From Candidatus Dojkabacteria bacterium (lineage in GTDB: Bacteria > Patescibacteriota > Dojkabacteria > B142 > OLB20), in the NCBI GenBank assembly GCA_030583785.1, contig CP129475.1:914209-978208 (forward strand): 64,000 nt of DNA, written 5' to 3'. Made by a program: the position numbers and the translations under genes. Shown in pieces: positions 5,081-25,662 of this stretch. Under the pieces are notes generated by a model. That model was not told the origin of the DNA and did no database searches. It was given only the letters and a program-made list of their open reading frames with translations. Numbering within the stretch: the first letter of the stretch is position 1; each line of letters starts with the position of its first letter.

Positions 5081-5899
5081 ATGCGTAGGAGTATTCAATC
5101 CATAGAGTCGTCTGGGGTTGGTTTATCTACGCACATTGCTCGATACAATTTCCCTGCACGCTCTGATTATGAGCAATACTATATGTCTGGTGGGCAGATT
5201 CAATCCCCAGAAGAGTTATGGCAGAACAATGATTATGTCGCAGATGTTCAGAGACACTGGCATACTAAAGGGCAGAACGGATGTGTCTTTGCACAAAGGC
5301 AAGCAATAATTGGTGACGGGTGGAATACGCATGTAGTGTCTGATCCACTTGAAACGATACTCGGAGAAGACATTTTAGGTGATATCCCTTTGGTTGTCGC
5401 CAATGCAATAAATGATCCTAGTATTGAAGTTGTGAGTCTTTTGTTCCCTCAAGTGCGAACATCTGCCGAATTGGTAGTGTTCCTAAAGGCTCTTCGGTCA
5501 ACAAAACCATTTACTGTAGGACGAGAGGACAGATTTGATGATTATACTGCCCTAGGATTACGATTTCCCATTTCTGACGAAGTTACTGCTTGGATAGTAG
5601 GGTTCGCCCCATTCCCTTATTTACCTATAACTCGGCAAGCGCCTTCATTGGAACTTGCAGTGCGTGTGAAGGTAAAACCAGAAGATATGTTCTATAAATT
5701 AAATCATGATCAGAGTGTTGCACATCCTGCAGATATTCCTTTACAGATGGATGACGAGGTTGCAGAAAGACTATATACTATCACTGTAGAAAAAACAGCG
5801 GAATTGTTAGGGGGACATGATGCAAGAAAGAATAATCCCCATGCAAAGGCGAAGTACACTATATCCGTTCCCACTGAGCTGTGGTTTGGTGACACATAA
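5081..5899 (+). CDS. Hypothetical protein, possibly YqcI/YcgG-family-like
   Basis: Weak motif resemblance from memory (NGCVFAQ; IVGFAPFPYLPITRQAP compared with the YqcI signature FVFGSCP.Y..RR). GC content is higher than the left flank, and the gene is the first one inside the putative island. Confidence 0.3.
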   Translation: MRRSIQSIESSGVGLSTHIARYNFPARSDYEQYYMSGGQIQSPEELWQNNDYVADVQRHWHTKGQNGCVFAQRQAIIGDGWNTHVVSDPLETILGEDILGDIPLVVANAINDPSIEVVSLLFPQVRTSAELVVFLKALRSTKPFTVGREDRFDDYTALGLRFPISDEVTAWIVGFAPFPYLPITRQAPSLELAVRVKVKPEDMFYKLNHDQSVAHPADIPLQMDDEVAERLYTITVEKTAELLGGHDARKNNPHAKAKYTISVPTELWFGDT

Positions 5900-5931
5900 A
5901 AGAGATTAAATAAGTTAACAAAAATACATCA

Positions 5932-6573
5932 ATGATAGAAGTAGAAAAGAGATCTCTTGTAACTCAACAACAACTTGATACTCACCCCCTTAAGAACTTT
6001 TTTTCTGAGAAGGCAACGTTACAAAAACACTTTCGTCGCTTTACGATGGTTGGTATAGAAAATGCAGATTTTACTCCAAATCCTGATTCACTGATTGACC
6101 TAAAGGTGAGGACAACAGAAGAAAAAGGACTACTTACTGTAAAATATGGAAATTGGCATACGGGGACTGCAAGAGAAGAGCATGAAATATCTTTTAACCC
6201 TGAGACTGAGATAACAGCGGTAATGAATATCCTTAGGTTATTGGGAAGACAAACATTTATTATTAGTTATCTTGAGCGGTTTGAGTATCATTTCGAAAAC
6301 ATCATTATTACAAAGGACGTTTATAAATCGATGCCGGGCTCAATTTTATTAGAGCTGGAGGTAGGAGTACAGAATGAGAATGAGGTCGAATCAGCGGAAA
6401 AAAAGATTGATAACCTTATGGCTGAATTACAGTTAGAGACGCTTGATTCTGAGGGAACAAAAAGATTTATTGCTGATATGAATGCTATCAAAGAGTACCA
6501 GGTGAGTTTTGTGAGTCAGTCAGTTGACGAATGGTATACAAAATGGAGTGATTACATTCATTGTCGAATATAA
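5932..6573 (+). CDS. CYTH (triphosphate tunnel) domain protein
   Basis: The N-terminal MIEVEKR matches the CYTH ExExK signature, and there are later acidic ELE/LELEVG strands. The size of about 210 aa is typical. Confidence 0.5.
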   Translation: MIEVEKRSLVTQQQLDTHPLKNFFSEKATLQKHFRRFTMVGIENADFTPNPDSLIDLKVRTTEEKGLLTVKYGNWHTGTAREEHEISFNPETEITAVMNILRLLGRQTFIISYLERFEYHFENIIITKDVYKSMPGSILLELEVGVQNENEVESAEKKIDNLMAELQLETLDSEGTKRFIADMNAIKEYQVSFVSQSVDEWYTKWSDYIHCRI

Positions 6574-6589
6574 ATTAACATTCAGCATA

Positions 6590-7162
6590 ATGATAAAGGT
6601 TCAACTTGGTGGTAAGTTTACAAGAGAGGATGATGGGATTTTCCTGTTAAAGAAAAAACTGAAGGAGAGTGGACATTTTAGTATTCGGTATCCAGAAGGA
6701 GATGGGATTATGACTGATCATAATGGTATACCACTAACATTCGATCCAGCAAAAGAGAAAAAGTCTTTTTATGAAGTCGAGCTAGACTTTATGTTATCAA
6801 TCAAAGAATCTGATTTTCACATTGTTTATAATAAGTTTGCAGAAAAAATTGGCTACATTGGTGAGAGTTCGAGCATAGAAATTGCGTATGGGTTAGTTCA
6901 TGATAAAAACATTGTCCTCATGCACCAACCACTTTTTTCGGATAAAGTTCCAGAGAGTATCAAAAACCTCATTTCTGTAGCGGTGCAAAAAGAAAAAATA
7001 CTTGTTATTCCCTTATATACATATAATCTCACCGAAATTGATAATTTTGTTCATGATTATAAATCCTATGAGGTAAAGTATTCATTATCTGTTACTCAGG
7101 AAATGACAGTATTACAAGAAGTCGAAAAACTTCTATTATCATACAAGAATGCAAATTTCTAA
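6590..7162 (+). CDS. Hypothetical protein
   Basis: ORF with an internal ATG start (MIKVQLGG). The listed ORF at 6524 overlaps the upstream gene. No motif was recognised. Confidence 0.4.
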   Translation: MIKVQLGGKFTREDDGIFLLKKKLKESGHFSIRYPEGDGIMTDHNGIPLTFDPAKEKKSFYEVELDFMLSIKESDFHIVYNKFAEKIGYIGESSSIEIAYGLVHDKNIVLMHQPLFSDKVPESIKNLISVAVQKEKILVIPLYTYNLTEIDNFVHDYKSYEVKYSLSVTQEMTVLQEVEKLLLSYKNANF

Positions 7163-7164
7163 TA

Positions 7165-8031
7165 ATGTCTGATGCTTTAATTGACAGAGATCCCATGCCT
7201 GATCCACACCCATTGCTACAATACGAAACTATACGGCCAGGTATTGAACAATATCGTCTCGATCTTCGTGTTCTCTATCCCGATAGAGCAAAAAGAGATG
7301 CATTTGAGGGCAAGTGGCAAAGATTTTATGATTCTGATTCAGCAAACAGGGATGTTTTTGGGAGAGAAGATGATGCAATTATTTATCTTTCCGAATCACT
7401 TATTCCTGAGAAAAAAGACGAAAGACCCCCGTTGTTAATGGTTTTTGGTAATCCTGCGCCACATTCTATTAAGGAGGGTATGTTTTTTTCATATGAAGGA
7501 AATGGCAGAGAACATCGTATTTGGAAAATATTCAGAGATGTCGGGATAGTCTCGTTTGAGTTAGACACATTGTTCGAGGATCCAAATGAGCGAAGGAAAC
7601 GGCAGTTACATTCTCTTGAATACCATTCCCCATTTAGGATTGGGATGATACCATTTTACGCGATGGCAACAACGCCAAGTGCAGCACCATGGACTGGAGT
7701 ATCTGGTCTTTATAGGCTATTTGGAACGCAGGCAATGCAGAACATTGCAATGGCCGAAAGAGAGAGGCTAGGACGCATAGTGAGGAACTTTATGTCAGAT
7801 GGTGGGCTTATTATCGCCTTTCAAAAAGATGCATACGAGAATCTTTCACATGCTGAAGCCCCAGCTTATGGGAGAGATTCTGCATTACAAAATGGTCTTA
7901 TTGCATATTACGATGGGAATCCAGATGTAATGGTTGCGGGATCGCCTCCCACCCGTTCACTTCATGGAGTTCAAGCGAAAAAAGCACTTGCAGGGATTGT
8001 AGTGAAGTTTTTTAAAAGGGATGGGATGTAG
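7165..8031 (+). CDS. UDG-superfamily, MUG/TDG-like DNA glycosylase homologue (divergent motif)
   Basis: LLMVFGNPAPHS...EHRIWKIFRDVGIV parallels E. coli Mug VFCGINPGLSS...ANRFWKVIYQAGF. The catalytic-motif position carries GNPAP instead of GINPG. Confidence 0.4.
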   Translation: MSDALIDRDPMPDPHPLLQYETIRPGIEQYRLDLRVLYPDRAKRDAFEGKWQRFYDSDSANRDVFGREDDAIIYLSESLIPEKKDERPPLLMVFGNPAPHSIKEGMFFSYEGNGREHRIWKIFRDVGIVSFELDTLFEDPNERRKRQLHSLEYHSPFRIGMIPFYAMATTPSAAPWTGVSGLYRLFGTQAMQNIAMAERERLGRIVRNFMSDGGLIIAFQKDAYENLSHAEAPAYGRDSALQNGLIAYYDGNPDVMVAGSPPTRSLHGVQAKKALAGIVVKFFKRDGM

Positions 8032-8317: not shown

Positions 8318-9157
8318 ATGGCGGTACCTAAATACGACGACCTCTTTCAACCATTACTAGATGCATTGCATCAACTAGGCGGGTCGGGTACGGTCGAAGA
8401 AATCAACGAAAAAGTAGCAGAAATGCTAAATCTCTCAGAAGACGATGTAAATGAAATTCACAAAGGCACTGCTACGAAACTTGCCTACCGTTCTGGTTGG
8501 TCAAAAAACTACCTAAAACGGTATGGCTTAATCGAAAATTCCGAGCGAGGCGTGTGGCGGTTAACACTTAAAGGTCAGCAGACCAAAGTTGTAGATAAGG
8601 CGGATGTCCGTAGATTTGTACAAAAGCTATCACGCAAACAGGTAAACGTTGCGGATGCTGCAAATGACGGTCTTGAGCCAAACGAAACAGAAACCACGTG
8701 GGAGGAAGCGTTAATCCAAAAGTTATTGGAAATATCACCTGAATCATTTGAGAAATTATGCCAACGCATTTTGCGCGAATCTGGATTTATCCAGGTCGAA
8801 GTCACTGGCAAAAGTGGTGACGGCGGCATTGATGGTAAAGGGATTTTGCGTTTGAACGGATTATTGAGCTTCCACATCATTTTTCAGTGCAAACGCTATT
8901 CTGGCGCAGTCAGTTCCAAAGAAATCAGAGATTTCCGCGGTGCAATGCAAGGTCGAGCAGACAAAGGCCTATTTTTGACTACTGGAACATTTACCCGTGA
9001 TGCCAAGCAGGAAGCTACACGTGATGGCGCGCCACCGATTGACCTTGTAGACGGTAATTTATTAGCCCAGAAGCTCAAAGAACTTAGACTGGGCGTTGAC
9101 GTCGAAGTCCAGGAAGAAGTTACGATTAATCCAGCATTTTTTGAACAGTACAGTTGA
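8318..9157 (+). CDS. mrr: Mrr-like type IV (modification-dependent) restriction endonuclease
   Basis: The N-terminal Mrr_N winged helix (PKYDDLFQPLLDAL...) is followed by a PD-(D/E)xK Mrr_cat core (GKSGDGGIDGKG...FQCKRY). Confidence 0.8.
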   Translation: MAVPKYDDLFQPLLDALHQLGGSGTVEEINEKVAEMLNLSEDDVNEIHKGTATKLAYRSGWSKNYLKRYGLIENSERGVWRLTLKGQQTKVVDKADVRRFVQKLSRKQVNVADAANDGLEPNETETTWEEALIQKLLEISPESFEKLCQRILRESGFIQVEVTGKSGDGGIDGKGILRLNGLLSFHIIFQCKRYSGAVSSKEIRDFRGAMQGRADKGLFLTTGTFTRDAKQEATRDGAPPIDLVDGNLLAQKLKELRLGVDVEVQEEVTINPAFFEQYS

Positions 9158-9333
9158 TGACCGACGACACATACCTAACAATCGAAGAAGTGGCAGAAAA
9201 GCTCAAAGTAGCCTACATCACTGTGTATAGGTGGGTAAGAACTGGTCAGCTAAAATCGGTTAAAGCTGGCAAGCAACATCGGATAAAGCAAACCGACCTA
9301 GATAATTTTTTAGAACGAAAAAATGGCGCTTAG
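9157..9333 (+). CDS. Small excisionase-family HTH DNA-binding protein (58 aa)
   Basis: The ATG at 9157 overlaps the mrr stop (ATGA). The product MTDDTYLTIEEVAEKLKVAYITVYRWVRTGQLKSVKAGKQHRIKQTDLDNFLERKNGA matches the excisionase-family HTH_17 pattern (LTxxEVAExLxVSxxTVYRWxxxGxLPAxKxGxxWRI). Its stop at 9331-9333 overlaps the start of the downstream RM gene by 11 nt. It is absent from the ORF track because it is under 60 aa. Confidence 0.55.
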   Translation: MTDDTYLTIEEVAEKLKVAYITVYRWVRTGQLKSVKAGKQHRIKQTDLDNFLERKNGA

Positions 9334-12031
9334 TTGGAATGAAATAAAAAAACGCGCCATAGAGTTCTCTAAATCGTGGGAAGGGGTCGAACGCGAGAAA
9401 GCAGAGGCACAAACCTTCTGGAATGAGTTCTTTGAGGTATTTGGACAAACTCGCAGGAAAGTCGCCATCTTAGAGCAGGAAGTTAAAAGACTAGATGAAT
9501 CCAAAGGCTATATTGACCTATTTTGGCCAAAGGTACTCTTGGCAGAGGCTAAATCCAAGGGCAAAGACCTGGTTAAAGCCAAAGAACAGGCGATTTCCTA
9601 CCTTCATGGCATCGAAGACAGTGAATTACCACAGTATATTTTGACCTCTGACTTTGATGCTATGTCCCTACTCGACCTTGAATCAGGTGAGTCGTGGCAG
9701 TTCAAAGTCGGGAAATTACACGAAAATATCAAACTATTTTCTTTTATTGCTGGCTATGCGAAAACTGACTTCAAGGAAGAGGACCCTGTAAACATAAAAG
9801 CTGCGGAATTAATGGGTAAATTACATGACAGCCTCACGGAAGCAGGTTATTCTGGACATACTTTGGAAGTTTTCCTGGTCAGAGTGCTATTTTGTTTATT
9901 TGCTGACGACACTGGCATTTTTGAAAAAGGTACTTTTTCTCAATACATTAGCAGCACCAAAGTTGACGGCACCGACGTTGGTCCCCAGCTTGCGCAGCTT
10001 TTCCAGTTGCTAGATACGCCAGAAGAAAAGCGGTTTAGAAACCTTGATGAAAATCTCGCTAGGTTCCCTTACGTTAACGGTAAGCTATTTGAGGAAGTCA
10101 TACCTATGGCTGGATTCGATAGCACCATGCGCGGGTCACTAATCGCCTGTTCACAGTTTGATTGGAGTCGTATATCACCTGCTGTGTTTGGTTCATTGTT
10201 CCAATCTGTAATGGACCAAAAAGCCCGCAGAAACCTCGGCGCGCACTATACCAGTGAATCAAACATTTTAAAGGTAATAAGGCCGCTTTTCTTGGATGAA
10301 CTGTGGCAAGAATTTGAGTTGGTAAAAAATAACAAACCAAAGCTAGCCCAGTTCCATGACAAAATTGCTGGCTTGAAATTTATGGACCCTGCCTGCGGTT
10401 GTGGTAACTTTTTGGTCATCACCTACCGAGAATTGCGCTTACTTGAGTTAGAGGTCGTTAAAAAGTTGGCTGGACATCAAAGGACCTTTGACATAACAAG
10501 CCTCGTTAAACTCAACGTAGACAGCTTTTACGGTATAGAAATTGAGGAATTCCCAGCCAGAATCGCTGAAGTAGCCATGTGGCTAGTTGACCACCAAATG
10601 AACGTCAGATTCTCAGAAGAACTTGGGCAGTATTTTGTTCGTTTGCCGTTAAAAAAATCTGCCAACATAATTCACGGCAACGCCCTTCAAATCGACTGGC
10701 AATCTATCGTAAAACCTTCTGAGCTGTCATACATACTAGGCAACCCACCTTTCGTCGGCAAACAAATGCGAAGCAGAGAACAAACTGAAGACCAGCTTAA
10801 AGTAATGGCAGGTATAAAAGGAGCAGGTGTGCTAGATTTCGTAGCTTGCTGGTATATAAAAGCGGCACAGTACATCCAAAATACTGCAATTAAAGTTGCA
10901 CTAGTATCCACAAATTCAATAACGCAGGGTGAACAGGTCGGAATTCTATGGAGCGAGCTATTTGCAAAGTATGGTATAAAAATCCACTTCGCCCACCGCA
11001 CATTCCAATGGAACAGCGAGGCCAGGGGTAAAGCCGCCGTACACGTCGTAATTATAGGTTTTGCTAACTTCGACGACACGACGAAATACATATTTGAATA
11101 TGACCACATTCAGTCAGAGCCACATAAAATTAAAGTCAAAAACATAAACCCCTATTTGGTTGAAGGTAAAGAGTTAACAGTTCCCCTTAGGCGTAATCCC
11201 ATTTGTGATGTACCACGCATGGATTATGGAAGTACACCAAGGGATTTTAACCATTTAGTTTTGTCTTCTGATGAAAAAGAGGCATTAATCAGTGCGGAAC
11301 CTTTGGCAAAAAGATTTATCCGCCCATTCATAGGTTCATTTGAGTTTATTAATAACGTCAAAAGATACTGTTTATGGCTTGAAAATGTAACACCAAGTGA
11401 GCTCAACCAACTCCCGCTTGTGAAAGCAAGGGTTGAATTGGTGCGCAAAGATAGAAATCTAAGTGAAAGAGCTGGAACTAAGAAAATGGCCGAATATCCA
11501 ACTCTATTCGCGGAAAACCGTCAGCCTGACACGGATTATCTAGTTGTACCTCTAGTATCGTCAGTTAATAGAACTTATGTGCCTATTGGTTTCATGGATA
11601 AAAGTACAGTTACAAATAACCAGGTTTCAATAGTTCCTGAAGCTGGATTGTTTCACTTCGCAGTCATACAATCCTTAATGCACATGACATGGATGAGGTA
11701 TATTGCAGGACGATTAAAAAGCGATTACAGATATTCAAATTCATTGGTATACAATAATTTCCCTTGGCCAGCCAGCATCACAGATGACCTAAAAAGTCGA
11801 ATTGAATTTAAAGCACAGGAAGTGCTTAATATTAGGGCAGATTTTAATGATTCGACACTTGGTGAATTATATAACTCTCTGACAATGCCAGCTAAACTGC
11901 TAAAAGCACATAAGGAATTAGACAAATTAGTCGACAAGGCATATCGCAAAGACACCTTTGGTGATGACCGCGAGCGTATTGAGTTTTTGTTTGAGCTGTA
12001 TGCTGGCTTAACGCAAGCCCCAATCCAATAG
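9323..12031 (+). CDS. MmeI-family type IIL restriction-modification enzyme (fused endonuclease + N6-adenine methyltransferase + TRD)
   Basis: The N-terminus MALSWNEIKKRAIEFSKSWEGVEREKAEAQTFWNEFFEVFG...IDLFWPKVLLAEAKSKGKDL matches the MmeI N-terminal PD-ExK nuclease. An NPPF motif (LGNPPFVGKQ) and an FxGxG SAM region (MDPACGCGNFLV) are present. The 902-aa size fits the family. Confidence 0.85.
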   Translation: MALSWNEIKKRAIEFSKSWEGVEREKAEAQTFWNEFFEVFGQTRRKVAILEQEVKRLDESKGYIDLFWPKVLLAEAKSKGKDLVKAKEQAISYLHGIEDSELPQYILTSDFDAMSLLDLESGESWQFKVGKLHENIKLFSFIAGYAKTDFKEEDPVNIKAAELMGKLHDSLTEAGYSGHTLEVFLVRVLFCLFADDTGIFEKGTFSQYISSTKVDGTDVGPQLAQLFQLLDTPEEKRFRNLDENLARFPYVNGKLFEEVIPMAGFDSTMRGSLIACSQFDWSRISPAVFGSLFQSVMDQKARRNLGAHYTSESNILKVIRPLFLDELWQEFELVKNNKPKLAQFHDKIAGLKFMDPACGCGNFLVITYRELRLLELEVVKKLAGHQRTFDITSLVKLNVDSFYGIEIEEFPARIAEVAMWLVDHQMNVRFSEELGQYFVRLPLKKSANIIHGNALQIDWQSIVKPSELSYILGNPPFVGKQMRSREQTEDQLKVMAGIKGAGVLDFVACWYIKAAQYIQNTAIKVALVSTNSITQGEQVGILWSELFAKYGIKIHFAHRTFQWNSEARGKAAVHVVIIGFANFDDTTKYIFEYDHIQSEPHKIKVKNINPYLVEGKELTVPLRRNPICDVPRMDYGSTPRDFNHLVLSSDEKEALISAEPLAKRFIRPFIGSFEFINNVKRYCLWLENVTPSELNQLPLVKARVELVRKDRNLSERAGTKKMAEYPTLFAENRQPDTDYLVVPLVSSVNRTYVPIGFMDKSTVTNNQVSIVPEAGLFHFAVIQSLMHMTWMRYIAGRLKSDYRYSNSLVYNNFPWPASITDDLKSRIEFKAQEVLNIRADFNDSTLGELYNSLTMPAKLLKAHKELDKLVDKAYRKDTFGDDRERIEFLFELYAGLTQAPIQ

Positions 12032-12079: not shown

Positions 12080-12108
12080 TTGTGTTTTAGAATTTGTAGG
12101 TGTATAAT
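12080..12108 (+). promoter_or_regulatory. Candidate promoter of the higB operon (TTGTGT - 17 bp - TATAAT)
   Basis: -35 TTGTGT at 12080-12085 and a perfect -10 TATAAT at 12103-12108, about 40 bp upstream of the higB ATG. Confidence 0.45.
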
Positions 12109-12124
12109 TTCCCAAAATGGGAAA
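12108..12124. promoter_or_regulatory. Inverted repeat TTTCCCA-aaa-TGGGAAA overlapping the predicted transcription start; candidate antitoxin operator
   Basis: A perfect 7-bp inverted repeat with a 3-bp spacer sits immediately after the -10 element. Type II TA operons are typically autoregulated through such palindromes. Confidence 0.35.
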
Positions 12125-12150
12125 AGATAATCAATCATTAAAACTGAATA

Positions 12151-12438
12151 ATGAAACTAGTAGGAATGCCAATTTTAAGTGAGTTTAAATCGAAGCATGC
12201 GGATGTGAAGTCACCAATCGACTCATGGGTGCAAGAAGTAAAAGCGGCGCAATGGCAGAACACTCACGACGTAAAGGCAAGGTACTCATCGGCTGACTTC
12301 TTTAAAGGCAATCGCGTAGTAATTAACTTGAAGGGTAATAAATATAGACTACTTTTTCGAGTTAATTATCAGGTGAAAGTGGTACAGGTGGAGAAAGTCG
12401 GCACACATAATGAATACAATAAGTGGAATTTAAATTAG
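12151..12438 (+). CDS. higB: HigB toxin (RelE/ParE superfamily mRNA interferase)
   Basis: 95 aa; FKGNRVVINLKGNKYRLLFRVNYQVKVVQVEKVGTHNEY matches the HigB signature. It sits upstream of a HigA-like gene and overlaps it by 16 nt. Confidence 0.75.
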   Translation: MKLVGMPILSEFKSKHADVKSPIDSWVQEVKAAQWQNTHDVKARYSSADFFKGNRVVINLKGNKYRLLFRVNYQVKVVQVEKVGTHNEYNKWNLN

Positions 12439-13658
12439 CGAACAAAATTATGGCAATAAAAGTAATAAAAACAGATGAAGAATACCAGGAGGCATTGGAA
12501 CTCTTAACTGCCCTCATGGCAAAAGACATTGAACCTCATTCAAGCGAGGCCGAAACCCTTGAATTGCTTGCAGCACTCATCGAGGATTACGAAGAAACAA
12601 TGTGGGGCGAAAATATCCCTGACCCAATTGATGCATTGCAGTTTAGAATGGAACAACAAGGGCTAACAGCCGACGACCTTGTTCCTTATATTGGTAGTCG
12701 TAGCAAAGTATCTGAAGTCCTATCGCGAAAGAGGCCGTTAAGTCTGAATATGCTCAAATCACTGCAAACTGGATTAGGGATTCCTGCAAATGTTCTTTTA
12801 AATCAGCCGAGAACCCAGGAGTTTAAAGGGGTTGATATAGAGCAGTTCCCTTTGAAAGAAATGATAAAAAGGGGTTATATCCAGGGCAAAATTGACGAAG
12901 GGCTAGATTATTTAGAAAAAAAGGTAAATGAATTTCTAAGCCCAGTCTTGGATAGTACTCACATTTCGACACTATTAAGTAAGACCTCCTATATTCGCTC
13001 ATCTAGGCCAATGAGTAGGCATGCCTTAATTGCGTGGGTAGCTGAAGTAATGCGTAAAGCAGAACAGAAAGAAAATATCGTTGAATTTGATGTAGCCTAT
13101 TTGGACAAAAACCTTCTCAATCAAGTAATAAAATTCAGTTCGGAAGATGGTGGTATTAATAAAGCCATAAAATATATTGAAGAAAATGGCATCTCAGTTG
13201 TCGTTGAACCCCATCTGCCTAAAACATATTTGGATGGTGCGGCTATTATGATTGATGGTAAAAACCCAGTAATAGGTTTAACCATTCGACATGACCGACT
13301 CGACAATTTTTGGTTTACCCTATTACATGAGTTATCTCATATCGTTTTGCATTACGATGAAGGAGTCCATCTATTCTATGACGACCTAGACACAATCGAC
13401 AGCACTAATCCAAAAGAAAAAGAAGCTGATGATTTAGCTATTAATACAATGATACCTTTAGACAAATGGAAAGTCAGTCCAGCTAGCATATTACCTTCTC
13501 CCGATGCAGCTAAACTGCTCGCAAACCAATTAGGGATACATATATCAATTGTTGCGGGACGAATGAGATACGAAAGAAAGCAGTACCAATTCCTAAATGA
13601 ACTAATTGGAAAAGGTGAAGTGCGTAAATATTTTCCAGAGGTGAAATGGGAGGTATGA
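12423..13658 (+). CDS. higA: HigA-like antitoxin (XRE HTH) fused to an ImmA/IrrE-family (COG2856, DUF955) HEXXH metallopeptidase domain
   Basis: The N-terminal ~135 aa align with HigA (EEYQEALELLTALM...IGSRSKVSEVLSRKRPLSLNMLKSLQTGLGIPANVLL). The C-terminal ~270 aa carry the HELSHIVLH zinc-peptidase motif. The start may be the internal Met at 12450. Confidence 0.7.
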   Translation: MEFKLANKIMAIKVIKTDEEYQEALELLTALMAKDIEPHSSEAETLELLAALIEDYEETMWGENIPDPIDALQFRMEQQGLTADDLVPYIGSRSKVSEVLSRKRPLSLNMLKSLQTGLGIPANVLLNQPRTQEFKGVDIEQFPLKEMIKRGYIQGKIDEGLDYLEKKVNEFLSPVLDSTHISTLLSKTSYIRSSRPMSRHALIAWVAEVMRKAEQKENIVEFDVAYLDKNLLNQVIKFSSEDGGINKAIKYIEENGISVVVEPHLPKTYLDGAAIMIDGKNPVIGLTIRHDRLDNFWFTLLHELSHIVLHYDEGVHLFYDDLDTIDSTNPKEKEADDLAINTMIPLDKWKVSPASILPSPDAAKLLANQLGIHISIVAGRMRYERKQYQFLNELIGKGEVRKYFPEVKWEV

Positions 13659-13659
13659 A

Positions 13660-14736
13660 ATGGAACATAATCAGAAATACATGCCAATACTACGATGGAA
13701 AAAAGCTGAGAGAGATGCATTAAAGTCGTTATCGGACGACCAAAAGAAAAACATCGTGCCGCTGTTTGAAATGGTTCCTAAAAGGATAACTGACCCCAAG
13801 AACAAGGACAACAAGTTACCAATGCCACCTAAACAGAATCTCGGCAATTGCATTGCATTCATACATAAAGAATTGACTGATATGAAAGTGCTATTGGACG
13901 TTACACATGTATATCCAAAGAAAGCAGAAGCGTTTGATGAAATGAGCATACCGACTACCTTATTTGGTAACAACCTTGTCCCAGTATTAAATTTGAATGA
14001 CATCAGAGCAGAGAACTTTAGCACAAATGTAAAAACCTTTTTTCGCAATCAAGGTATATGTCTAAGAGTAAAGTATAAGGAGATAGATGATAGTTTTTGG
14101 AATAGCGTAGACAACGAATTAACGGGCCTTGGCCTGACCAGACAGGATGTTGATTTTGTCATGGATTATGGGATTGCAAGCGTGAACCAAAAGGATGAAA
14201 TGCACAAGATAGTCAGTGATACCGACAAGACCACGGGATGGCGTAGCTATTTCTTTGCTAGTGGAGCTTTTCCTAAAGATTTACAAAAGATTACGCCTGG
14301 GAAAAAAGAGGAACTCGCACGAATCGACTGGACAAATTGGACTGACCTACTTAATCAAAACCCAGAACTACGATTACCGGGATTTAGCGACTACACGATT
14401 CAATATGCGGAGTATCACGAACCACCTGAAAAGGCTTTCCCAAGCTACAGCATAAGGTATACAGCACCAAATAAGTGGATTATTATGCGTGGACAAGGGT
14501 CAAATGCCCAAAATAGCGCTGGAGATAAACAATACTACGCGCATTCGGTCCTTTTAGTCATGGAAAGCGATTTCGCAGGTGCGAGTTGCTGTGAAAGCGA
14601 TAAAGACATCATCGCCCTAAGCCAAAATCCTGATGGCAAAATGGGAACACCCCAAAGCTGGATAAGAGCTGGGATAAGACATCACATTGTAGTTACGTTA
14701 AAGGGAGTAGAAAGCGTTTTGTCTTCTGGTAACTAG
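13660..14736 (+). CDS. Uncharacterised 358-aa protein, translationally coupled to higA (possibly Beta-protein/sce7725-like family)
   Basis: The ATG at 13660 lies 1 nt after the higA stop. N-terminus MEHNQKYMPILRWKKAERDALKSL. No catalytic motif was recognised. The family guess is from memory only. Confidence 0.45.
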   Translation: MEHNQKYMPILRWKKAERDALKSLSDDQKKNIVPLFEMVPKRITDPKNKDNKLPMPPKQNLGNCIAFIHKELTDMKVLLDVTHVYPKKAEAFDEMSIPTTLFGNNLVPVLNLNDIRAENFSTNVKTFFRNQGICLRVKYKEIDDSFWNSVDNELTGLGLTRQDVDFVMDYGIASVNQKDEMHKIVSDTDKTTGWRSYFFASGAFPKDLQKITPGKKEELARIDWTNWTDLLNQNPELRLPGFSDYTIQYAEYHEPPEKAFPSYSIRYTAPNKWIIMRGQGSNAQNSAGDKQYYAHSVLLVMESDFAGASCCESDKDIIALSQNPDGKMGTPQSWIRAGIRHHIVVTLKGVESVLSSGN

Positions 14737-15288
14737 ACACTCTCTTACAGAGGCTTTAAGCTCTCTTTCTGTAAAATTCTTCACCAACACTTCACAGATT
14801 TCCTTTTTATTTTTGCTATTCATGCCGTGAGCCAGATTTCTTCTTTTTAGGATATCAAGTGCTTCCGTTTTCCAGAGCATATTAGCAATAGTTAGCAAAT
14901 CCTGTGCTGGGTTTTCTTCTGCATTGCGCACACTAATAAGTTTAGGTTCATATTCGCTGTCTACTACTTTAGCTATAGTTATACCCCACCAATCTGGAAT
15001 CATTCTCAGTGCCTCAACCACATGACTTTTGCCAACCACAAGCGTAACTTTGTCGAAGATTAAGTTGTATGTGTTGGCCTGTGCAGAAAGTCTAAAAAGG
15101 TTATCCAAATCACCTTTTAGTTCATAACAGTGCATTATTCCATTAATAACTGCTATATCTGCTCTTACACTTCCATTGGAAATAGAAAACTCTGGAATAA
15201 TTGCCGTGTCAGGACCATTATATTTATTCTGAAGTTCCGACATTAACACCTTTCTTATTGTTTTGTCGCGAGTAATAAAATTATTCAT
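14698..15288 (-). CDS. sce7726-family-like protein (uncharacterised; usually paired with an sce7725-family gene)
   Basis: VRADIAVINGIMHCYELKGDLDNLFRLSAQANTYNLIFDKVTLVVGKSHVVEALRMIPDWWGI matches the remembered sce7726 signature (vRvDiAvvNG..hGyEiKsd.D.L.RL..Q...Y....D.vtLVvg..H...a....PdWWG). It converges on the upstream gene and overlaps it by 39 nt. Confidence 0.45.
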   Translation of the reverse strand: MNNFITRDKTIRKVLMSELQNKYNGPDTAIIPEFSISNGSVRADIAVINGIMHCYELKGDLDNLFRLSAQANTYNLIFDKVTLVVGKSHVVEALRMIPDWWGITIAKVVDSEYEPKLISVRNAEENPAQDLLTIANMLWKTEALDILKRRNLAHGMNSKNKKEICEVLVKNFTERELKASVRECLVTRRQNAFYSL

Positions 15289-15386
15289 ATAGCAGTTTTA
15301 CTTACAGTATAAATTTTTGCGATAATGACATCAACAATTTAAGCGCCTAACCCCATAAATTTCGGTTTATGGGTATGGACATAAGA

Positions 15387-15521
15387 CCTTGCGAGTATAG
15401 ACGGTTCCATCCGTCCAGATTTGCTCGCAAGGCCTTCAGGGGAAACTCTGATGCTGGATTGGGTGGGACCATTTTTGTGGTTTCCCAGTCCAGCATCGCT
15501 AAACGTATTTTATTTTTTAGC
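15387..15521 (+). promoter_or_regulatory. Highly structured leader: three consecutive hairpins immediately upstream of the ATG at 15531
   Basis: Hairpin 1: ccttgcgag (15387-15395) pairs with ctcgcaagg (15424-15432), with a nested gacgg/ccgtc stem. Hairpin 2: gatgctggattggg (15450-15463) pairs with cccagtccagcatc (15484-15497). Hairpin 3: gctaaa (15498-15503) pairs with tttagc (15516-15521) across a U-rich loop. Confidence 0.35.
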
Positions 15522-15530
15522 AACTGGACT

Positions 15531-16394
15531 ATGCGAATTCCATTTCCCAAAAGCAAGCCTGCAATTGCGGTAATAATAATCGTTGGTATTTTAGTACTCT
15601 GCTCAATCTGCTGCGTGTCAGCTATTCTTATTGCTCCTTCATTGCCTACAACACTTAAACTGACGTCTTCGCCGACGACTTCGTGGGACTCAAAGGAACC
15701 AACCCAGACAGTTAAATTCGATTGTACAAATGCTCAAAAAATCACGCTAAACGGCTCTCAGTTAAACGAAAAGGATAAAAATGAACTTTGTATTGGCAAT
15801 GGTTATAAACTCGATTTGCAGAATGGTCAGAACACTTTTACTTTTGTTGCTAGCCATGAGCGTGGTGACGTTGTGACAGTAGAATTAAAAATCAGTTTTG
15901 ACAAGAAAGCCTATGAGGATAGGTTGGCCGCCGAAGAAAAACAACGGCAAGAAGAGGAAGCTAAACGTAAGCAAAAAGAAGCCGATGACAAGGCAAAAGC
16001 CGAAGCTGAGGCTAACAAACCCAAAGTCGGTGACTCTCTTTTGGGGCCGAGTTACGAAGATATTAAAGCGGAGTATGAAAAGCAAAATAAACTTTCGAGT
16101 TACAAGGGTATGCAATATTTAGAGAGTTTAAAAGGTACCAAGATTGTCTGGGTGGCAGAAATAGGCGATGTCGACGAAGAATCGTTTGGAGATGATTTAT
16201 ACATCTCCTTGCTACTTTCGACTGGCATAGTTCAAAATAAACTAGCTTTTGTCGATAATCCCAAGCCCGAATACCTCAATTTGAATATGAAAACAGTAGT
16301 TAAGGTCACAGGCACGATAAAAGAGGTCAACACAAATTTTTTAGGACAAACAGTCTACATTAATGGTGACGCGACTTTCGAGGTTATCAACTAA
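15531..16394 (+). CDS. Membrane-anchored protein with a Lys/Glu-rich coiled-coil segment (hypothetical)
   Basis: Start set at the internal Met (MRIPFPKSKPAIAVIIIVGILVLCS TM helix). The central region reads KKAYEDRLAAEEKQRQEEEAKRKQKEADDKAKAEAEANK. The listed ORF start at 15369 spans the hairpin region. Confidence 0.45.
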   Translation: MRIPFPKSKPAIAVIIIVGILVLCSICCVSAILIAPSLPTTLKLTSSPTTSWDSKEPTQTVKFDCTNAQKITLNGSQLNEKDKNELCIGNGYKLDLQNGQNTFTFVASHERGDVVTVELKISFDKKAYEDRLAAEEKQRQEEEAKRKQKEADDKAKAEAEANKPKVGDSLLGPSYEDIKAEYEKQNKLSSYKGMQYLESLKGTKIVWVAEIGDVDEESFGDDLYISLLLSTGIVQNKLAFVDNPKPEYLNLNMKTVVKVTGTIKEVNTNFLGQTVYINGDATFEVIN

Positions 16395-17986: not shown

Positions 17987-19627
17987 ATGAATGATGAGAA
18001 CCCACTTGAACAAGCACAGTACAAAGAGGCATTACTAAAATACGCCCACGCTTACACGCTCAAAAAGCAGAAAAATAAAAGCGAGAAACAACTTTCCGAT
18101 TCTAAACGCTACTATGTTATCTACGCCCGCAAATCCACCGAGGATGATAAACGACAAGTGCAATCCATAGAGGACCAAATCGAACAATGTCAGAAGTTTG
18201 CTAAAAGGGAGAATTTAGAGGTAGTTGATATTGTCCAAGAAGACAAAAGTGCAAAAACCGCTGGTAGACGTCCGAAATTTGCGGCAATGTTGGAACGGTT
18301 AAGGAAAGGTGATTTATACAACAGTATCCTGGCATGGCATCCAGACCGTTTAGCGCGCAATATGAAGGAAAGTGGAGAGATACTGGACCTGCTCGATAAC
18401 GACATTATTGTCGACCTTAAATTTCCATCTTACTCATTCAACAATGATGCTGCGGGCAAAATGACTCTAAGTATTTTGTTCGCGATGGCAAAGGAATTTT
18501 CCGACAAGTTATCAGAGGATACGAAGCGCGGTATTCGTAAAAAGATTCGCGAAGGTAAATATTCAGGCACAGGCAAACGTGGTTATATGGTGAACAAGCA
18601 CGAATATTTTAGACCCGATGACAGCAACTTCGCAATATATCAAAAGGCATGGCAGGAATACAGTAGTGGCAAAACGCAAAGTGAAATTATCCGCGGCTTA
18701 AAGGAACAAGGTGAGAAAATTTCCACAAATGGTATGTCAGAATACTTCCAAGACCCTTTTGTAGCTGGCATTTATACTTACGGTGAGCAGGTAGTTGACC
18801 TCGAAAAAGTAGACCCTAAATTTACGCCTATGATAGGTCCCAAGGAGTTTTTAATGGCACAAAAGATAAACAGGCCTAATCCACGCGGTTGGTGCATGAA
18901 CGATGAATTCAAACCACTAAATGACCTAGTCTTGTGTGCTGATTGTGGCAACCCAATGATTGCTGGTTTGAGTGAAGGTAATCGTTATCGATACCTAAAC
19001 CTGACTTGTAGCAATCGGGCTTGTAAGGAGAAAAGGCGAGAGAAAAAGATTAAACCAGTATCCAACACCATACGCGCATTCGAGATAATCGACTTTGCCC
19101 GTAGAGTGTTTGATGAATTGCTAAATATTGACCAAGCTACTTACGACAAGGCCAAGAAAAAGTATTTCACCGAACGCAGTGCGGTCATTAAAGGATTGGT
19201 TGCAGAGTCTGCAAAGTTGAAAGCTAGCAAATCCAAACTCGAAACTAAGTCCTCCAAACTAAGCGACCAGATACTCGAAAAGCACAGTGAAGATGTCAAA
19301 CAAAAGTTCTCAGAGGAATTTACAAGCGTGCTTGCGCAGATTAGAAATATTGACGCAAGTTTAGTTACCTTGGAACAAAAAAAGCGGGATTTGGAATTTG
19401 AAATCGAAGATGAATTTCCTGACTTCAAGACGTTTCTGAACTTCTTTGAAAACATATCGGCCACAATAGAATCCACCGATAATGCCTATCTTGTCGACCA
19501 ACTAGTGAAATTGGTATTTCTGAACCTAACTGTAAGTGAGAAAAAGGTTGTTAAATATACCCTTCGCGAGCCTTTCAAAACCTATGAGAACCTGAATTTC
19601 CTTGTTGGGGTGGTTGACAGGACTTGA
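17987..19627 (+). CDS. Large serine recombinase (integrase)
   Basis: Resolvase catalytic domain YVIYARKSTEDDKRQVQSIEDQ with the nucleophile Ser. The 546-aa length and a Cys-rich recombinase/zinc-ribbon region (CADCGNPM...CSNRAC) fit a large serine recombinase. Its 3' end overlaps the tRNA-His 3' end. Confidence 0.85.
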   Translation: MNDENPLEQAQYKEALLKYAHAYTLKKQKNKSEKQLSDSKRYYVIYARKSTEDDKRQVQSIEDQIEQCQKFAKRENLEVVDIVQEDKSAKTAGRRPKFAAMLERLRKGDLYNSILAWHPDRLARNMKESGEILDLLDNDIIVDLKFPSYSFNNDAAGKMTLSILFAMAKEFSDKLSEDTKRGIRKKIREGKYSGTGKRGYMVNKHEYFRPDDSNFAIYQKAWQEYSSGKTQSEIIRGLKEQGEKISTNGMSEYFQDPFVAGIYTYGEQVVDLEKVDPKFTPMIGPKEFLMAQKINRPNPRGWCMNDEFKPLNDLVLCADCGNPMIAGLSEGNRYRYLNLTCSNRACKEKRREKKIKPVSNTIRAFEIIDFARRVFDELLNIDQATYDKAKKKYFTERSAVIKGLVAESAKLKASKSKLETKSSKLSDQILEKHSEDVKQKFSEEFTSVLAQIRNIDASLVTLEQKKRDLEFEIEDEFPDFKTFLNFFENISATIESTDNAYLVDQLVKLVFLNLTVSEKKVVKYTLREPFKTYENLNFLVGVVDRT

Positions 19628-19682
19628 ACCTGCGGCATCCAGTGCCACAAACTGGCGCTCTACCGACTGAGCTACAACCACC
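19605..19682 (-). tRNA. tRNA-His (anticodon GTG), CCA encoded
   Basis: Reverse complement GGTGGTTGTAGCTCAGTCGGTAGAGCGCCAGTTTGTGGCACTGGATGCCGCAGGTTCAAGTCCTGTCAACCACCCCA forms a cloverleaf. The anticodon loop is TTGTGGC (GTG), and the usual His-specific extra 5' G / C73 arrangement is present. Confidence 0.85.
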
Positions 19683-21260: not shown

Positions 21261-21282
21261 AGGCTGCGGATATGTTCAAGCA
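21255..21282. repeat. Left copy of a 28-bp perfect direct repeat (aactaaaggctgcggatatgttcaagca) flanking the CRISPR-Cas cassette
   Basis: Identical 28-mer at 21255-21282 and 29750-29777. The left copy contains the gnd codon AAC plus stop TAA and abuts the truncated terminal CRISPR repeat. Confidence 0.75.
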
Positions 21283-23611
21283 ACAGTAGAAATCTCTTAT
21301 AAGGAATAAGGTTATTCATAAGCTGAAAAAGGTCGCAGAAATCTACAACAGTAGAAACCTCTTATAAGGAATAAGGAGGAGAGGTATCAGTCGCTCAAGT
21401 CATCTACAACAGTAGAAATCTCTTATAAGGAATAAGAATCTGGCAGTTGCGTTAGACAATACGATCTACAACAGTAGAAATCTCTTATAAGGAATAAGAA
21501 TAAATTATTAATTACCCACCATGAGAATCTACAACAGTAGAAATCTCTTATAAGGAATAAGTTTTAATTATTAGCGAATAAGTATGGATCTACAACAGTA
21601 GAAATCTCTTATAAGGAATAAGCTAGTAAATTTCCTGATATATTTTACAGCATCTACAACAGTAGAAATCTCTTATAAGGAATAAGTCATATTTATAGAA
21701 TACACACTTATTATCTACAACAGTAGAAATCTCTTATAAGGAATAAGCTCGTAACAGATATGTTGACAGCTCTAATCTACAACAGTAGAAATCTCTTATA
21801 AGGAATAAGTCCATAAATCAAATTACTAACATCTCTATCTACAACAGTAGAAATCTCTTATAAGGAATAAGATGTTGTTCGCCATAGTTTTCTAAAATCT
21901 ACAACAGTAGAAATCTCTTATAAGGAATAAGAGTAGACAAGTTTCGTGACGATGCAGAGTATCTACAACAGTAGAAATCTCTTATAAGGAATAAGTGCAA
22001 ACTTCAATTTTCACTTCAACATTTATCTACAACAGTAGAAATCTCTTATAAGGAATAAGATATATATATATTGAGGTTTATTCTTTAAATCTACAACAGT
22101 AGAAATCTCTTATAAGGAATAAGTACTTGGATTTTTATAGTTAACGCATTTATCTACAACAGTAGAAATCTCTTATAAGGAATAAGTGATGAGATAGCAA
22201 TGTTTGCAGGAATTATCTACAACAGTAGAAATCTCTTATAAGGAATAAGGCTACATTCTTATTCATTCTCAGAATTATCTACAACAGTAGAAATCTCTTA
22301 TAAGGAATAAGAAATCAAATAGTTTTTGGTATCTGTTTATCTACAACAGTAGAAATCTCTTATAAGGAATAAGTTCGCGACGATGCAGAGGCAAAAATTA
22401 TCTACAACAGTAGAAATCTCTTATAAGGAATAAGACAAGTATATCAGACCGACGGGACAAAATCTACAACAGTAGAAATCTCTTATAAGGAATAAGATTC
22501 TGCCAGTACCTTCTCAATTAATCCATCTACAACAGTAGAAATCTCTTATAAGGAATAAGACTGGAGAGTTTACTGGACAGGTTAATCTACAACAGTAGAA
22601 ATCTCTTATAAGGAATAAGATCACAGACACAGTTTCGCTTTAGTATCTACAACAGTAGAAATCTCTTATAAGGAATAAGATCACTGTATATAGAGCTGTT
22701 ACTGAATCTACAACAGTAGAAATCTCTTATAAGGAATAAGCGTATTTATACACCGACGGTTCCTTGGATCTACAACAGTAGAAATCTCTTATAAGGAATA
22801 AGTGCATGGTTTTTTCCTAAATAACTAAAATCTACAACAGTAGAAATCTCTTATAAGGAATAAGATTGGAAGATGTTTCAGCAAGATTTCGAATCTACAA
22901 CAGTAGAAATCTCTTATAAGGAATAAGGCTATTGGTAAAAAAGCTTAATCATAATATCTACAACAGTAGAAATCTCTTATAAGGAATAAGTTAGGCGTGT
23001 GTTATCCACATTTGAAATCTACAACAGTAGAAATCTCTTATAAGGAATAAGAGCAATAGACTGGGGAGGATATTCCTAATCTACAACAGTAGAAATCTCT
23101 TATAAGGAATAAGCATTATTTCTATCAATTTCAATGTTTATATCTACAACAGTAGAAATCTCTTATAAGGAATAAGATTCTGTTGCCGTCTTCAAGTTCG
23201 GCAAATCTACAACAGTAGAAATCTCTTATAAGGAATAAGCTTATTATTATTTAGCCATTGAATTTGATCTACAACAGTAGAAATCTCTTATAAGGAATAA
23301 GTGGAATATATTTTATCCTCTTATATGATCTACAACAGTAGAAATCTCTTATAAGGAATAAGAATGGATATATTAATTAATAACTAACGGATCTACAACA
23401 GTAGAAATCTCTTATAAGGAATAAGAGAAATAAAAGAGGGAGCAATCTTAATCTACAACAGTAGAAATCTCTTATAAGGAATAAGTTAGAGTTTATACGA
23501 AGTTTGCACATCGAATCTACAACAGTAGAAATCTCTTATAAGGAATAAGTCATACTAGTCTTGTTAATCCTAACAAATCTACAACAGTAGAAATCTCTTA
23601 TAAGGAATAAG
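21281..23611 (-). CRISPR. Type V-A CRISPR array: 38 repeats (one truncated terminal, 37 full) of 35 nt, 37 spacers of 26-29 nt
   Basis: Plus-strand repeat is ATCTACAACAGTAGAAATCTCTTATAAGGAATAAG. Its reverse complement ends ...AGAUUUCUACUGUUGUAGAU, the Cas12a crRNA 5' handle and pseudoknot. The leader and cas genes lie on the high-coordinate side, so transcription is on the minus strand. The distal repeat (21339-21373) carries one SNP, and the terminal repeat (21281-21310) lacks 5 nt. Confidence 0.95.
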
Positions 23612-23809
23612 AGCCATTTTCTTGATATAAAAGGAGATTCGATACAACCGATATTTACCGGGACGGATTCATATCATATTAAGAATAATGGGAAAAGCCT
23701 TAATTATCAACCTTATTGACGAATAGTATGGCTCGTCTGCTTAAAAATTAAGACTGAGGTTTGTTTTCCTTAGAAACGATTTATACCGTTAACTTGTCAA
23801 AGAGCTATT
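23612..23809 (-). promoter_or_regulatory. CRISPR leader (AT-rich, about 198 bp) between cas2 and the first repeat
   Basis: AT-rich non-coding stretch in the canonical position cas2-leader-array. It contains TTGATA and TATTCT/TAATAT hexamers in the transcript orientation. Confidence 0.55.
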
Positions 23810-24091
23810 CTAATCAAAGTATACCACATCCTCCTCTTCGTAATGTGCAGCACCATACTTGCGGATCTTCTTTTGGCAAGCTTCACATATCTCCATTACA
23901 AGGATATGATCTGTCAAATCAGCTTTTGTCATATGCTTTTTTTCGATACCCTCTATAACCAATCTTAATAGTCGTTTGCTATTGCGTATCTCGTAAACAG
24001 AGTACTGCAAAGCATGACCAAACTTTTTAAGGAACTTAGAGAATCTGGTTCTCCTTTTATTATCAGCGATATCGTATGTGACTAGAATCAT
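23810..24091 (-). CDS. cas2: CRISPR-associated endoribonuclease Cas2
   Basis: 93 aa with N-terminus MILVTYDIADNKRRTRFSKFL (Cas2 signature). It overlaps cas1 by 4 nt. Confidence 0.9.
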   Translation of the reverse strand: MILVTYDIADNKRRTRFSKFLKKFGHALQYSVYEIRNSKRLLRLVIEGIEKKHMTKADLTDHILVMEICEACQKKIRKYGAAHYEEEDVVYFD

Positions 24092-25041
24092 TTGTATATA
24101 TATTGTTTAAAATGATATCTGTTTGGATCCATTATATGTTTATAAAAATTCTTAATATATGTATAAATATCTTCACGATTTCTCATTAATTCTTCAAAGA
24201 ACATATTAGTATATTTTCTATGGAAATCTTTCTTGATTAAGAATTCTCCATCTTTGAAATAGAAATCTTTCTCATTAATCTGACCAAGGTTCCAAGCTTT
24301 TACGAGCTTATAATCAATAATTGGGCGTAAAGGTTCCATTACATCGCAAGACAATGATTTCCTAATGAAAAATGGTTTATGATAGTAACCCATATAAGTA
24401 TCAAAGCCAAACAGTCTTAGTAACGAGTCAACATAGTTAAATAAATATGTGTATCCAATATCTAACAACAAGTTTGGAATATCCTCCTTTGTTCTGGGTG
24501 TTCTTCGATACCACTTCAGATTGTCAAACATCCGATTGAAATAACCCTTAGCCGCATTTCCTTCGAATCCAAGCATTGATTCTGTACTTTTTGCATTTGT
24601 TATGCCGTTGATTGAAGCAATATCTGTAATAACAATTCCTGTTCTTGTCTTTTGGAGAGCATTGTATTGATTCTGGACCTTATTGAGGACCAAGTTTCTA
24701 CTAATCTCTAAAGCAAATGAATCATTATGGTGATACTGTTTCTTTCTAAGGATGTAATTCCCTTCTGCTGCTGATGTGATTTCGGCATAAGTTTTTAAAG
24801 AGTCATTAAGCAGAAAAAGAGATATCCCATGTTCTCTCATCTGTTTAATCAATACACTAGTCAAACTTAATTCGCCGATATAATAGATTGCAAATATTAA
24901 GTGTGTTGAAACTTGATGAGTGAATCTATCATCTCTATATAGGCAGATATTGCTGTTCCTAAATTTGAGTTTGTTATCTAACCCTGGTCTATTACCAACA
25001 TGCAGTATCTTTTTTTCTTTGAAATCATTTAACTGTAGCAT
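24088..25041 (-). CDS. cas1: CRISPR-associated integrase Cas1
   Basis: 317 aa with Cas1 motifs, including the conserved His/Glu region (GFDTYMGYYHK...FFIRKSLSCDVMEPLRPIID). Confidence 0.9.
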   Translation of the reverse strand: MLQLNDFKEKKILHVGNRPGLDNKLKFRNSNICLYRDDRFTHQVSTHLIFAIYYIGELSLTSVLIKQMREHGISLFLLNDSLKTYAEITSAAEGNYILRKKQYHHNDSFALEISRNLVLNKVQNQYNALQKTRTGIVITDIASINGITNAKSTESMLGFEGNAAKGYFNRMFDNLKWYRRTPRTKEDIPNLLLDIGYTYLFNYVDSLLRLFGFDTYMGYYHKPFFIRKSLSCDVMEPLRPIIDYKLVKAWNLGQINEKDFYFKDGEFLIKKDFHRKYTNMFFEELMRNREDIYTYIKNFYKHIMDPNRYHFKQYIYK

Positions 25042-25589: not shown

Positions 25590-25662
25590 ACAGATATTAT
25601 ACTATAAGACACTATTATTCCGAAGCCTATAGTTGATATGTTTTTATGGAACTATTTCTGAA

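Follow-up and report, generated by a model that had tools for sequence, protein, structure and literature searches.

Closest described systems

PD-lambda-2 is an anti-phage system of three components that was isolated from Escherichia coli ECOR42 in a selection for resistance to phages (Vassallo et al. 2022, PMC9519451). The components are a HigB-like protein (A), a HigA-like protein with an Xre helix-turn-helix (HTH) domain and a C-terminal peptidase (B), and a relative of a P4 phage antitoxin (C). The system protects against lambda-vir with an abortive-infection (Abi) phenotype, and gene C is required (PMC9519451). Operons in which an Xre-COG2856 fusion accompanies a RelE or PIN toxin had been reported previously, with three-component systems predicted (Makarova et al. 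2009, PMC2701414), and the NCBI pipeline labels such pairs routinely as a HigB family toxin and an ImmA/IrrE family metallo-endopeptidase. As this architecture was described in 2009 and 2022 and is annotated routinely, it is not new. A literature search for follow-up studies on PD-lambda-2 found surveys only. Here, we describe a predicted four-gene member of this family, found in a 64-kb stretch of contig CP129475.1 from a Candidatus Dojkabacteria bacterium; this whole stretch is referred to as the window.

Two further groups of described systems are relevant to the comparison. The gop-beta-cII system of satellite phage P4 gives defence against lambda and P1, and Gop shows toxicity when beta is missing (Rousset et al. 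2022, PMC9122126). The M78 peptidases ImmA, IrrE and CapP cut their XRE partners in response to a DNA-damage or single-stranded DNA cue, and CapP together with CapH regulates many immune operons.

Identification of a probable four-gene PD-lambda-2 locus

Genes in the window were taken from the open reading frame (ORF) listing and by direct reading of the sequence. Genes A, B and C are three closely packed genes on the plus strand, and gene D is convergent with them on the minus strand (Table 1). The PADLOC models for PD-lambda-2 match all three plus-strand genes, each over the full length, namely PD-Lambda-2_A (1.5e-38, positions 1-93 of 94), PD-Lambda-2_B (1.7e-142, 473 bits, residues 1-397 aligned to positions 1-398 of the 402 in the model) and PD-Lambda-2_C (1.7e-31). 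The Pfam families found are HigB_toxin (PF09907, E 9e-27) for A, Peptidase_M78 (PF06114, 26.2 bits against a gathering score of 22) for B and Beta_protein (PF14350, E 4.5e-51) for C, and these are the families given for PD-lambda-2A, B and C in Table S4 of Vassallo et al. 2022 (PMC9519451). The gene content also agrees, with a HigB-like gene first, a HigA-M78 gene second and a beta-like gene third, all on the same strand. Searches of NCBIfam returned no match for A or C, and only sub-threshold matches for B. On the basis of these matches, the locus is very probably an anti-phage defence module of the PD-lambda-2 family, in a four-gene subtype, in Candidatus Dojkabacteria.

A distant blastn search of the window DNA against complete E. 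coli genomes found no match. However, the complete genome of E. coli strain AREA_C483 contains a homologous operon, with the annotations HigB family toxin, ImmA-IrrE family metallo-endopeptidase and beta family protein, which was reached only via a relative in Shewanella. The identity of this operon to the ECOR42 system is not assumed, and all comparisons below that refer to the E. coli homologue were made with the AREA_C483 proteins. The gene order and the three Pfam families are the same as in PD-lambda-2, and the B proteins of the window and the E. coli homologue are 40 % identical end to end (E 2e-99). The C proteins are only 21 % identical (E 7e-11), and identity between the A proteins (23 %) is confined to the N-terminal half. 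The E. coli A protein is degenerate (87 amino acids, aa) and no cII-like gene lies downstream, whereas the window has an intact A and gene D. The window host is also a member of the candidate phyla radiation.

Table 1. Features of the window, with coordinates relative to its first nucleotide
Feature	Position	Strand	Description
Mrr restriction enzyme	8318-9157		Mrr_N and Mrr_cat (Pfam)
MmeI-like type IIG restriction-modification enzyme	9323-12031		902 aa; all five MmeI Pfam domains; PADLOC REase_MTase_IIG, 1215 bits
Candidate -35, TTGTGT	12080-12085	+	17-nucleotide (nt) spacer; 3/6 matches
-10-like hexamer, TATAAT	12103-12108	+	Perfect match, read from the sequence
Palindrome, TTTCCCA-aaa-TGGGAAA	12108-12124		Abuts the -10 hexamer; 27 nt before the first start codon
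Gene A	12151-12438	+	95 aa; HigB family (RelE fold)
Gene B	12450-13658	+	402 aa; HigA-type HTH and M78 (ImmA/IrrE) peptidase fusion
Gene C	13660-14736	+	358 aa; beta family (Beta_protein)
Gene D	14698-15288	-	196 aa; sce7726 family, P4 cII-like
LOOT RNA (RF03000)	15344-15472	+	Rfam, local search, full-length; 49.9 bits against gathering 46.4, E 1.3e-8
Large serine recombinase	17987-19627		Resolvase, Recombinase and Zn_ribbon_recom domains
tRNA gene	19609-19681		On the strand opposite to the serine recombinase gene, which ends inside it
Type V-A CRISPR-Cas12a locus	21281-29673	-	Complete
CRISPR array	21281-23611		About 37 repeats, period about 62
cas2	23810-24091	-	Part of the Cas12a locus
cas1	24088-25041	-	Part of the Cas12a locus
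cas4	25029-25589	-	Part of the Cas12a locus
cas12a	25663-29673		1336 aa; RuvC_1, REC1, NUC, Cpf1 PI and REC2 (Pfam)
CYTH-domain protein	5932-6573		Among three ORFs without Pfam matches (neighbours 5081-8031)

The HigB-like and HigA-peptidase proteins

An earlier note on this DNA had reported a higB gene next to a gene for a HigA HTH domain fused to a metallopeptidase of the ImmA/IrrE type with a HEXXH motif, and the pairing is borne out by the Pfam matches above and by the comparisons that follow. The A protein can be aligned to the E. coli mRNA interferase HigB (5ifg_A), and the motifs GN.YR and TH.EY are common to both. Residues R66, H86 and Y89 are shared by 56-59 of the 72 A-family members. 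In the A protein of the E. coli homologue both motifs are absent; their presence in the window A argues for retention of a predicted RNase activity here.

The length of B had been given as 411 aa, which corresponds to the GTG at 12423 where the ORF also opens. However, the ATG at 12450 is the start in all 30 aligned homologues, and an NCBI protein that is 100 % identical to B, encoded on a 1.17-Mb contig of a Candidatus Dojkabacteria metagenome-assembled genome, is 402 aa long. On these grounds B most likely has 402 aa, and the longer version is probably nine residues too long.

B consists of a HigA-type HTH region (approximately residues 1-117), a helical middle part and an M78 zinc-peptidase core. 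The HEXXH motif occupies residues 293-297 (nt 13326-13340) within the sequence HELSHIVLH (residues 293-301, nt 13326-13352), and H293, E294, H297, H301, E323 and D327 are invariant in the 30 homologues. Thus, the peptidase assignment is based on HEXXH and a downstream Glu, a profile score above the cut-off and a matching fold. For the N-terminal part, the Pfam HTH_3 match (12 bits) is unconvincing, and the HigA assignment therefore rests on profile-to-PDB and fold matches. The B-family profile matches E. coli HigA (5ifg_B and 5ycl_A, E 2e-13, residues 8-114). In Foldseek searches with an AlphaFold model of B (predicted local distance difference test score, pLDDT, 81), the N-terminus corresponds to E. 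coli HigA (approximately 36 % identity when structurally aligned) and the C-terminus to CapP (7t5t) and IrrE/PprI (3dte and 8slm). No GAF-like sensor domain was detected in B. Two segments stand out in the model, a flexible linker at residues 117-135, with low model confidence at 121-126, and the segment YIRS.RPM (residues 177-188), which is conserved yet disordered.

The A-B pair shares with E. coli HigB-HigA (YgjN-YgjM) the toxin-first gene order, the RelE fold and the conserved Arg, His and Tyr of A, in addition to the alignments of A to HigB and of B residues 8-114 to HigA. However, a canonical HigA antitoxin is an HTH-only protein of approximately 100-140 aa, whereas B adds approximately 280 residues that include the M78 peptidase, and the unit contains two more genes. 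An M78 HEXXH peptidase paired with an XRE-type HTH is also found in CapH/CapP, ImmR/ImmA and DdrO/IrrE, and the fold of the B peptidase matches those of CapP and IrrE/PprI. In B, unlike these systems, a single chain carries both the HTH and the peptidase, and this HTH belongs to the HigA antitoxin type and has a partner of the RelE fold.

RosmerTA (RmrT/RmrA) and the Xre-COG2856 antitoxins of the spr1629 type likewise have a fused HTH-M78 protein whose gene adjoins that of a toxin in a defence context. B matches NCBIfam spr1629 weakly (E approximately 1e-6), and its PADLOC RmrA matches are also weak (E 2e-6 to 2e-3). All of these matches fall far below the family cut-offs and are confined to the peptidase region, and the toxin partner is from another family, being HigB-like. 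Membership of RosmerTA was therefore rejected.

Stx-converting E. coli phages encode, on its own, a homologue of the N-terminal HigA-type domain of B (residues 4-132, 48 % identity), for example at 1068-1454 in GQ499358.1 and 9807-10193 in LC744179.1. These homologues have no peptidase domain. Most records leave the gene unannotated; GQ499358.1, the sole record in which it is annotated, places it in the immunity region.

The beta/cII pair

Gene C begins 1 nt past the stop codon of B (13658/13660) and is preceded by a GGAGG Shine-Dalgarno sequence, and in this arrangement C is translationally coupled to B. Apart from its Pfam and PADLOC matches, C is related to the beta protein of P4 (E 8e-7). 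The AlphaFold model of C (pLDDT 89.5, predicted template modelling score 0.90) is TIM-barrel-like, and its structural matches, to TIM barrels, are weak, with no close relative.

The 3' end of D overlaps the 3' end of C by 39 nt. D belongs to the NCBIfam family sce7726_fam (3.2e-49), matches the PADLOC 'cll' model for P4 gop-beta-cII (3.5e-28) and is 25 % identical to P4 cII (E 2e-15). No match to D was found among PDB sequences, and no family in Pfam. A D..E.K pattern in D (RADIAV..YELKGD) resembles the PD-(D/E)xK nuclease motif, but was noticed by eye only and is not claimed. From its conserved convergent position (see below), D would belong to the functional unit. A scan for terminator-like sites found none after C or D.

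In P4, beta is coupled to the upstream gene for the toxic component, with a convergent cII gene after it (Ghisotti 1990; PMC9122126), and the window is alike in this respect. From this order and the family matches, C followed by D reproduces the P4 beta/cII pair, with A and B in the place of Gop. However, Gop is a protein of 133 aa, no HTH-peptidase is present in P4, and the P4 beta and cII genes do not overlap, unlike C and D in the window. A or B was also considered as a relative of Gop, but no similarity was detectable (no PADLOC gop match for either; E 52 in BLASTP of B against Gop) and this was dropped. In prophage Rac-SA53 a beta/cII pair is found alone, and is also convergent with overlapping 3' ends.

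Promoter and predicted operator

The earlier note had placed a strong promoter with a palindromic operator in front of gene A. The palindrome is real. An inverted-repeat search returned it in the extended form TATAATTTCCCA / TGGGAAAAGATA, and TTCCCN5GGGAA occurs once in the 64-kb window against 0.03 occurrences expected. Of 71 related loci, 44, from many phyla, have TCCC-N5-GGGA in the 100 nt before gene A, against a background of 18 per 800 kb, and TTCC(C/A)-N5-GGGAA-like sites flank the promoter upstream of the E. coli homologue. There is therefore good evidence for TTCCC-N5-GGGAA as a predicted family-wide operator. It would most simply be bound by the HigA-type domain of B. Canonical HigBA modules are autorepressed through a palindromic operator in the promoter.

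'Strong' is not an apt description of the promoter. The -10 hexamer is perfect, but a scan for the sigma-70 consensus did not return the site because the -35 matches at only 3/6 positions. We note that the sigma-70 rules may not be those of this phylum.

Related loci and division of the family

Using the B profile, 80 loci were retrieved from many phyla, and their six-frame ORFs were searched with iterated profiles of the four window proteins. In 71 loci the gene directly before B is A. C comes after B in 31 of the 80, and approximately 45 of the 80 consist of A and B without C. A convergent, 3'-overlapping D after C was found in ten further loci, which are mostly from the candidate phyla radiation, Chloroflexota, Planctomycetota and Thermodesulfobacteriota and contain the nearest relatives of the window B. 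The combinations of A motifs, C and D are listed in Table 2.

Table 2. Combinations of A motifs, C and D in the loci, as raw counts uncorrected for phylogeny
A	C	D	Loci
Intact	Present	Present	11 (window included)
Intact	Present	Absent	7
Degenerate	Present	Absent	10 (all proteobacterial)
Intact	Absent	Absent	37
Intact	Absent	Present	1
Degenerate	Absent	Absent	6

The branch with a degenerate A and no D includes the E. coli homologue and probably also the PD-lambda-2 system that was tested experimentally, but not the window.

Possible mode of action

The following scheme is put forward tentatively as far as the specific order of events is concerned. In the uninfected cell, the HigA domain of B would bind A, as in E. 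coli HigBA, and a B dimer on TTCCC-N5-GGGAA would repress the operon. By analogy with ImmA/ImmR, IrrE/DdrO and CapP/CapH, the switch that responds to the signal would be the M78 domain. The peptidase would be activated by a cue of phage origin, which could be sensed directly or passed on by C and possibly also D, and would then cut B in cis or in trans, with the linker (residues 117-135) and the YIRS.RPM loop (residues 177-188) as candidate sites. Cleavage of B would free a ribosome-dependent RNase of the HigB type and derepress the operon, translation would stop, and the infected cell would abort the infection. The beta/cII genes would be a portable accessory module common to P4 gop-beta-cII.

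More broadly, it is possible, though we hold this at low confidence, that the four-gene form is a distinct subtype that fuses two described systems. The beta/cII genes would then be a portable phage-sensing or effector pair, a HigB RNase held by a self-cleaving HigA-peptidase would replace Gop, and the TTCCC-N5-GGGAA operator would extend from E. coli to the candidate phyla radiation.

Several points weigh against the proposed mode of action. As the host is an uncultured episymbiont, assumptions about its promoters and physiology are weak. C and D are assigned to families rather than to biochemical activities. No cysteine is present in the B sequence, and the 'cysteine switch' of CapP therefore cannot apply. 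A search for published demonstrations of self-cleavage by fused Xre-M78 proteins found none. Approximately 45 of the 80 loci have A and B without C, so that the A-B pair does not need C everywhere, and C as an obligatory partner of A-B was rejected because it is present in only 31. Finally, the E. coli PD-lambda-2 experiment gave the opposite polarity, with B toxic when expressed alone and rescued by co-expression of A (PMC9519451).

This last result, from the only experiment available, contradicts the earlier claim that HigB is the toxin and the fusion the antitoxin. It raises the alternative that the polarity is as in E. coli, with B the toxic effector whose peptidase destroys host targets or antitoxins, A its inhibitor, and C licensing activation on infection. 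The requirement for C in the same experiment is in line with this, and COG2856 was listed as the predicted toxin of Xre-COG2856 pairs by Makarova et al. (PMC2701414). However, GN.YR and TH.EY, which are missing from A of the E. coli homologue, are kept by the window A and by approximately 80 % of the family, and the toxic effect of B over-expression in E. coli K-12 could be an indirect one. As the window has an intact A and D, the reversed toxicity need not apply here, and we consider an E. coli-like polarity for this locus doubtful. The roles of A and B as toxin and antitoxin nevertheless remain uncertain.

The suggestion in the earlier note of a toxin-antitoxin module of the abortive-infection type holds in part. 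A link to Abi exists through PD-lambda-2 of E. coli, but the module is not the two-gene unit that was described; C and D were missed and the interval ended too early.

Loci without gene C

In the loci that lack C (L024-L075), the gene directly after B is usually a defence gene. PglZ, type I HsdR (twice), HsdM, Mrr_cat and AbiJ_NTD3 were found in this position, as were Abi_alpha, AbiEi, AAA_21/OLD-like ATPases, PLD-SNF2, RadC, DUF6933 and KilA-N. This hints at a possible role of the A-B pair as a front-end cassette that serves various defence systems. Two-gene A-B pairs are also carried by plasmids, and on small plasmids they can be found alone.

A second alternative draws partly on these neighbours. 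The A-B pair could be mainly a transcriptional switch of the CapH/CapP kind, responsive to damage or infection, that silences the downstream defence genes (beta/cII here, other systems elsewhere) until the peptidase cleaves the HTH, with HigB as an accessory. The conserved operator, the likeness of the C-terminal domain of B to CapP and IrrE, and the control of many immune operons by CapP with CapH are all consistent with such a switch, as is the defence gene that usually follows B where C is absent. However, a pure regulator needs no conserved RelE-fold partner that keeps catalytic-type residues, and over-expressed B was toxic in E. coli (PMC9519451). The pairs that stand alone on small plasmids also argue against it, and adjacency in defence islands can arise without co-regulation. 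Overall, we regard a mainly regulatory role for A-B as unlikely.

Genomic setting

Both restriction genes, for Mrr and for the MmeI-like enzyme, are directly upstream of the A-B-C operon. The serine recombinase gene abuts the tRNA gene, and the region from approximately 8 to 19.6 kb is probably an integrated mobile defence island. The CYTH gene and its neighbours, just upstream of the restriction genes, could be further cargo. A tRNA gene immediately beside the system was also seen in the related loci L001, L008, L010 and L014.

This setting is relevant to a third alternative, namely that A-B stabilizes the mobile island as a plain type II HigBA addiction module, with no role in phage defence and the peptidase only tuning the turnover of the antitoxin. 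Toxin-first order, homology to HigA, the homologous two-gene pairs on plasmids and the position in an island where a serine recombinase gene adjoins a tRNA gene would all fit. However, a three-gene homologue was selected for phage resistance and needs gene C (PMC9519451), the coupled beta/cII genes are part of a proven P4 defence system (PMC9122126), and the flanking genes are restriction enzymes. A role in stabilization alone is thus very unlikely, and the preferred reading remains a PD-lambda-2 defence module.

The LOOT RNA lies just past the 5' end of D and overlaps the start of the ORF at 15369-16394. The RNA search of related loci found no LOOT RNA in the other nine four-gene loci, but a second one is present in a Saccharibacteria locus (L008), at 10264-10390 on the minus strand, 1.4 kb beyond the cII-like gene. 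A literature search on LOOT RNA found nothing useful.

The CRISPR-Cas12a locus is placed beyond a 6-phosphogluconate dehydrogenase gene. On the minus strand its repeat terminates in ATTTCTACTGTTGTAGAT, which we take to be a Cas12a-type ending. Further along, an ORF of 2038 aa (41326-47442, minus strand) contains seven Laminin_G_3 (concanavalin-like lectin) repeats and DUF2341, and is probably a giant surface protein.

Implications

As the PD-lambda-2 system itself was already known, what this locus adds is a four-gene subtype, with an intact HigB-like gene and a cII-like gene, in a genome of the candidate phyla radiation. A bacterium of this radiation with a small genome fits Mrr, an MmeI-like enzyme, PD-lambda-2 and CRISPR-Cas12a into approximately 22 kb. 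For the family, the deeply conserved operator is a handle on the mechanism of PD-lambda-2, and the recurrent beta/cII pair ties PD-lambda-2 to P4 gop-beta-cII. The puzzling reversed toxicity in E. coli could find its explanation in the division of the family into intact and degenerate HigB-like proteins; if the reading of the four-gene form as a distinct subtype is true, the polarity reported for PD-lambda-2 in E. coli would be derived, as a feature of the degenerate-HigB branch.

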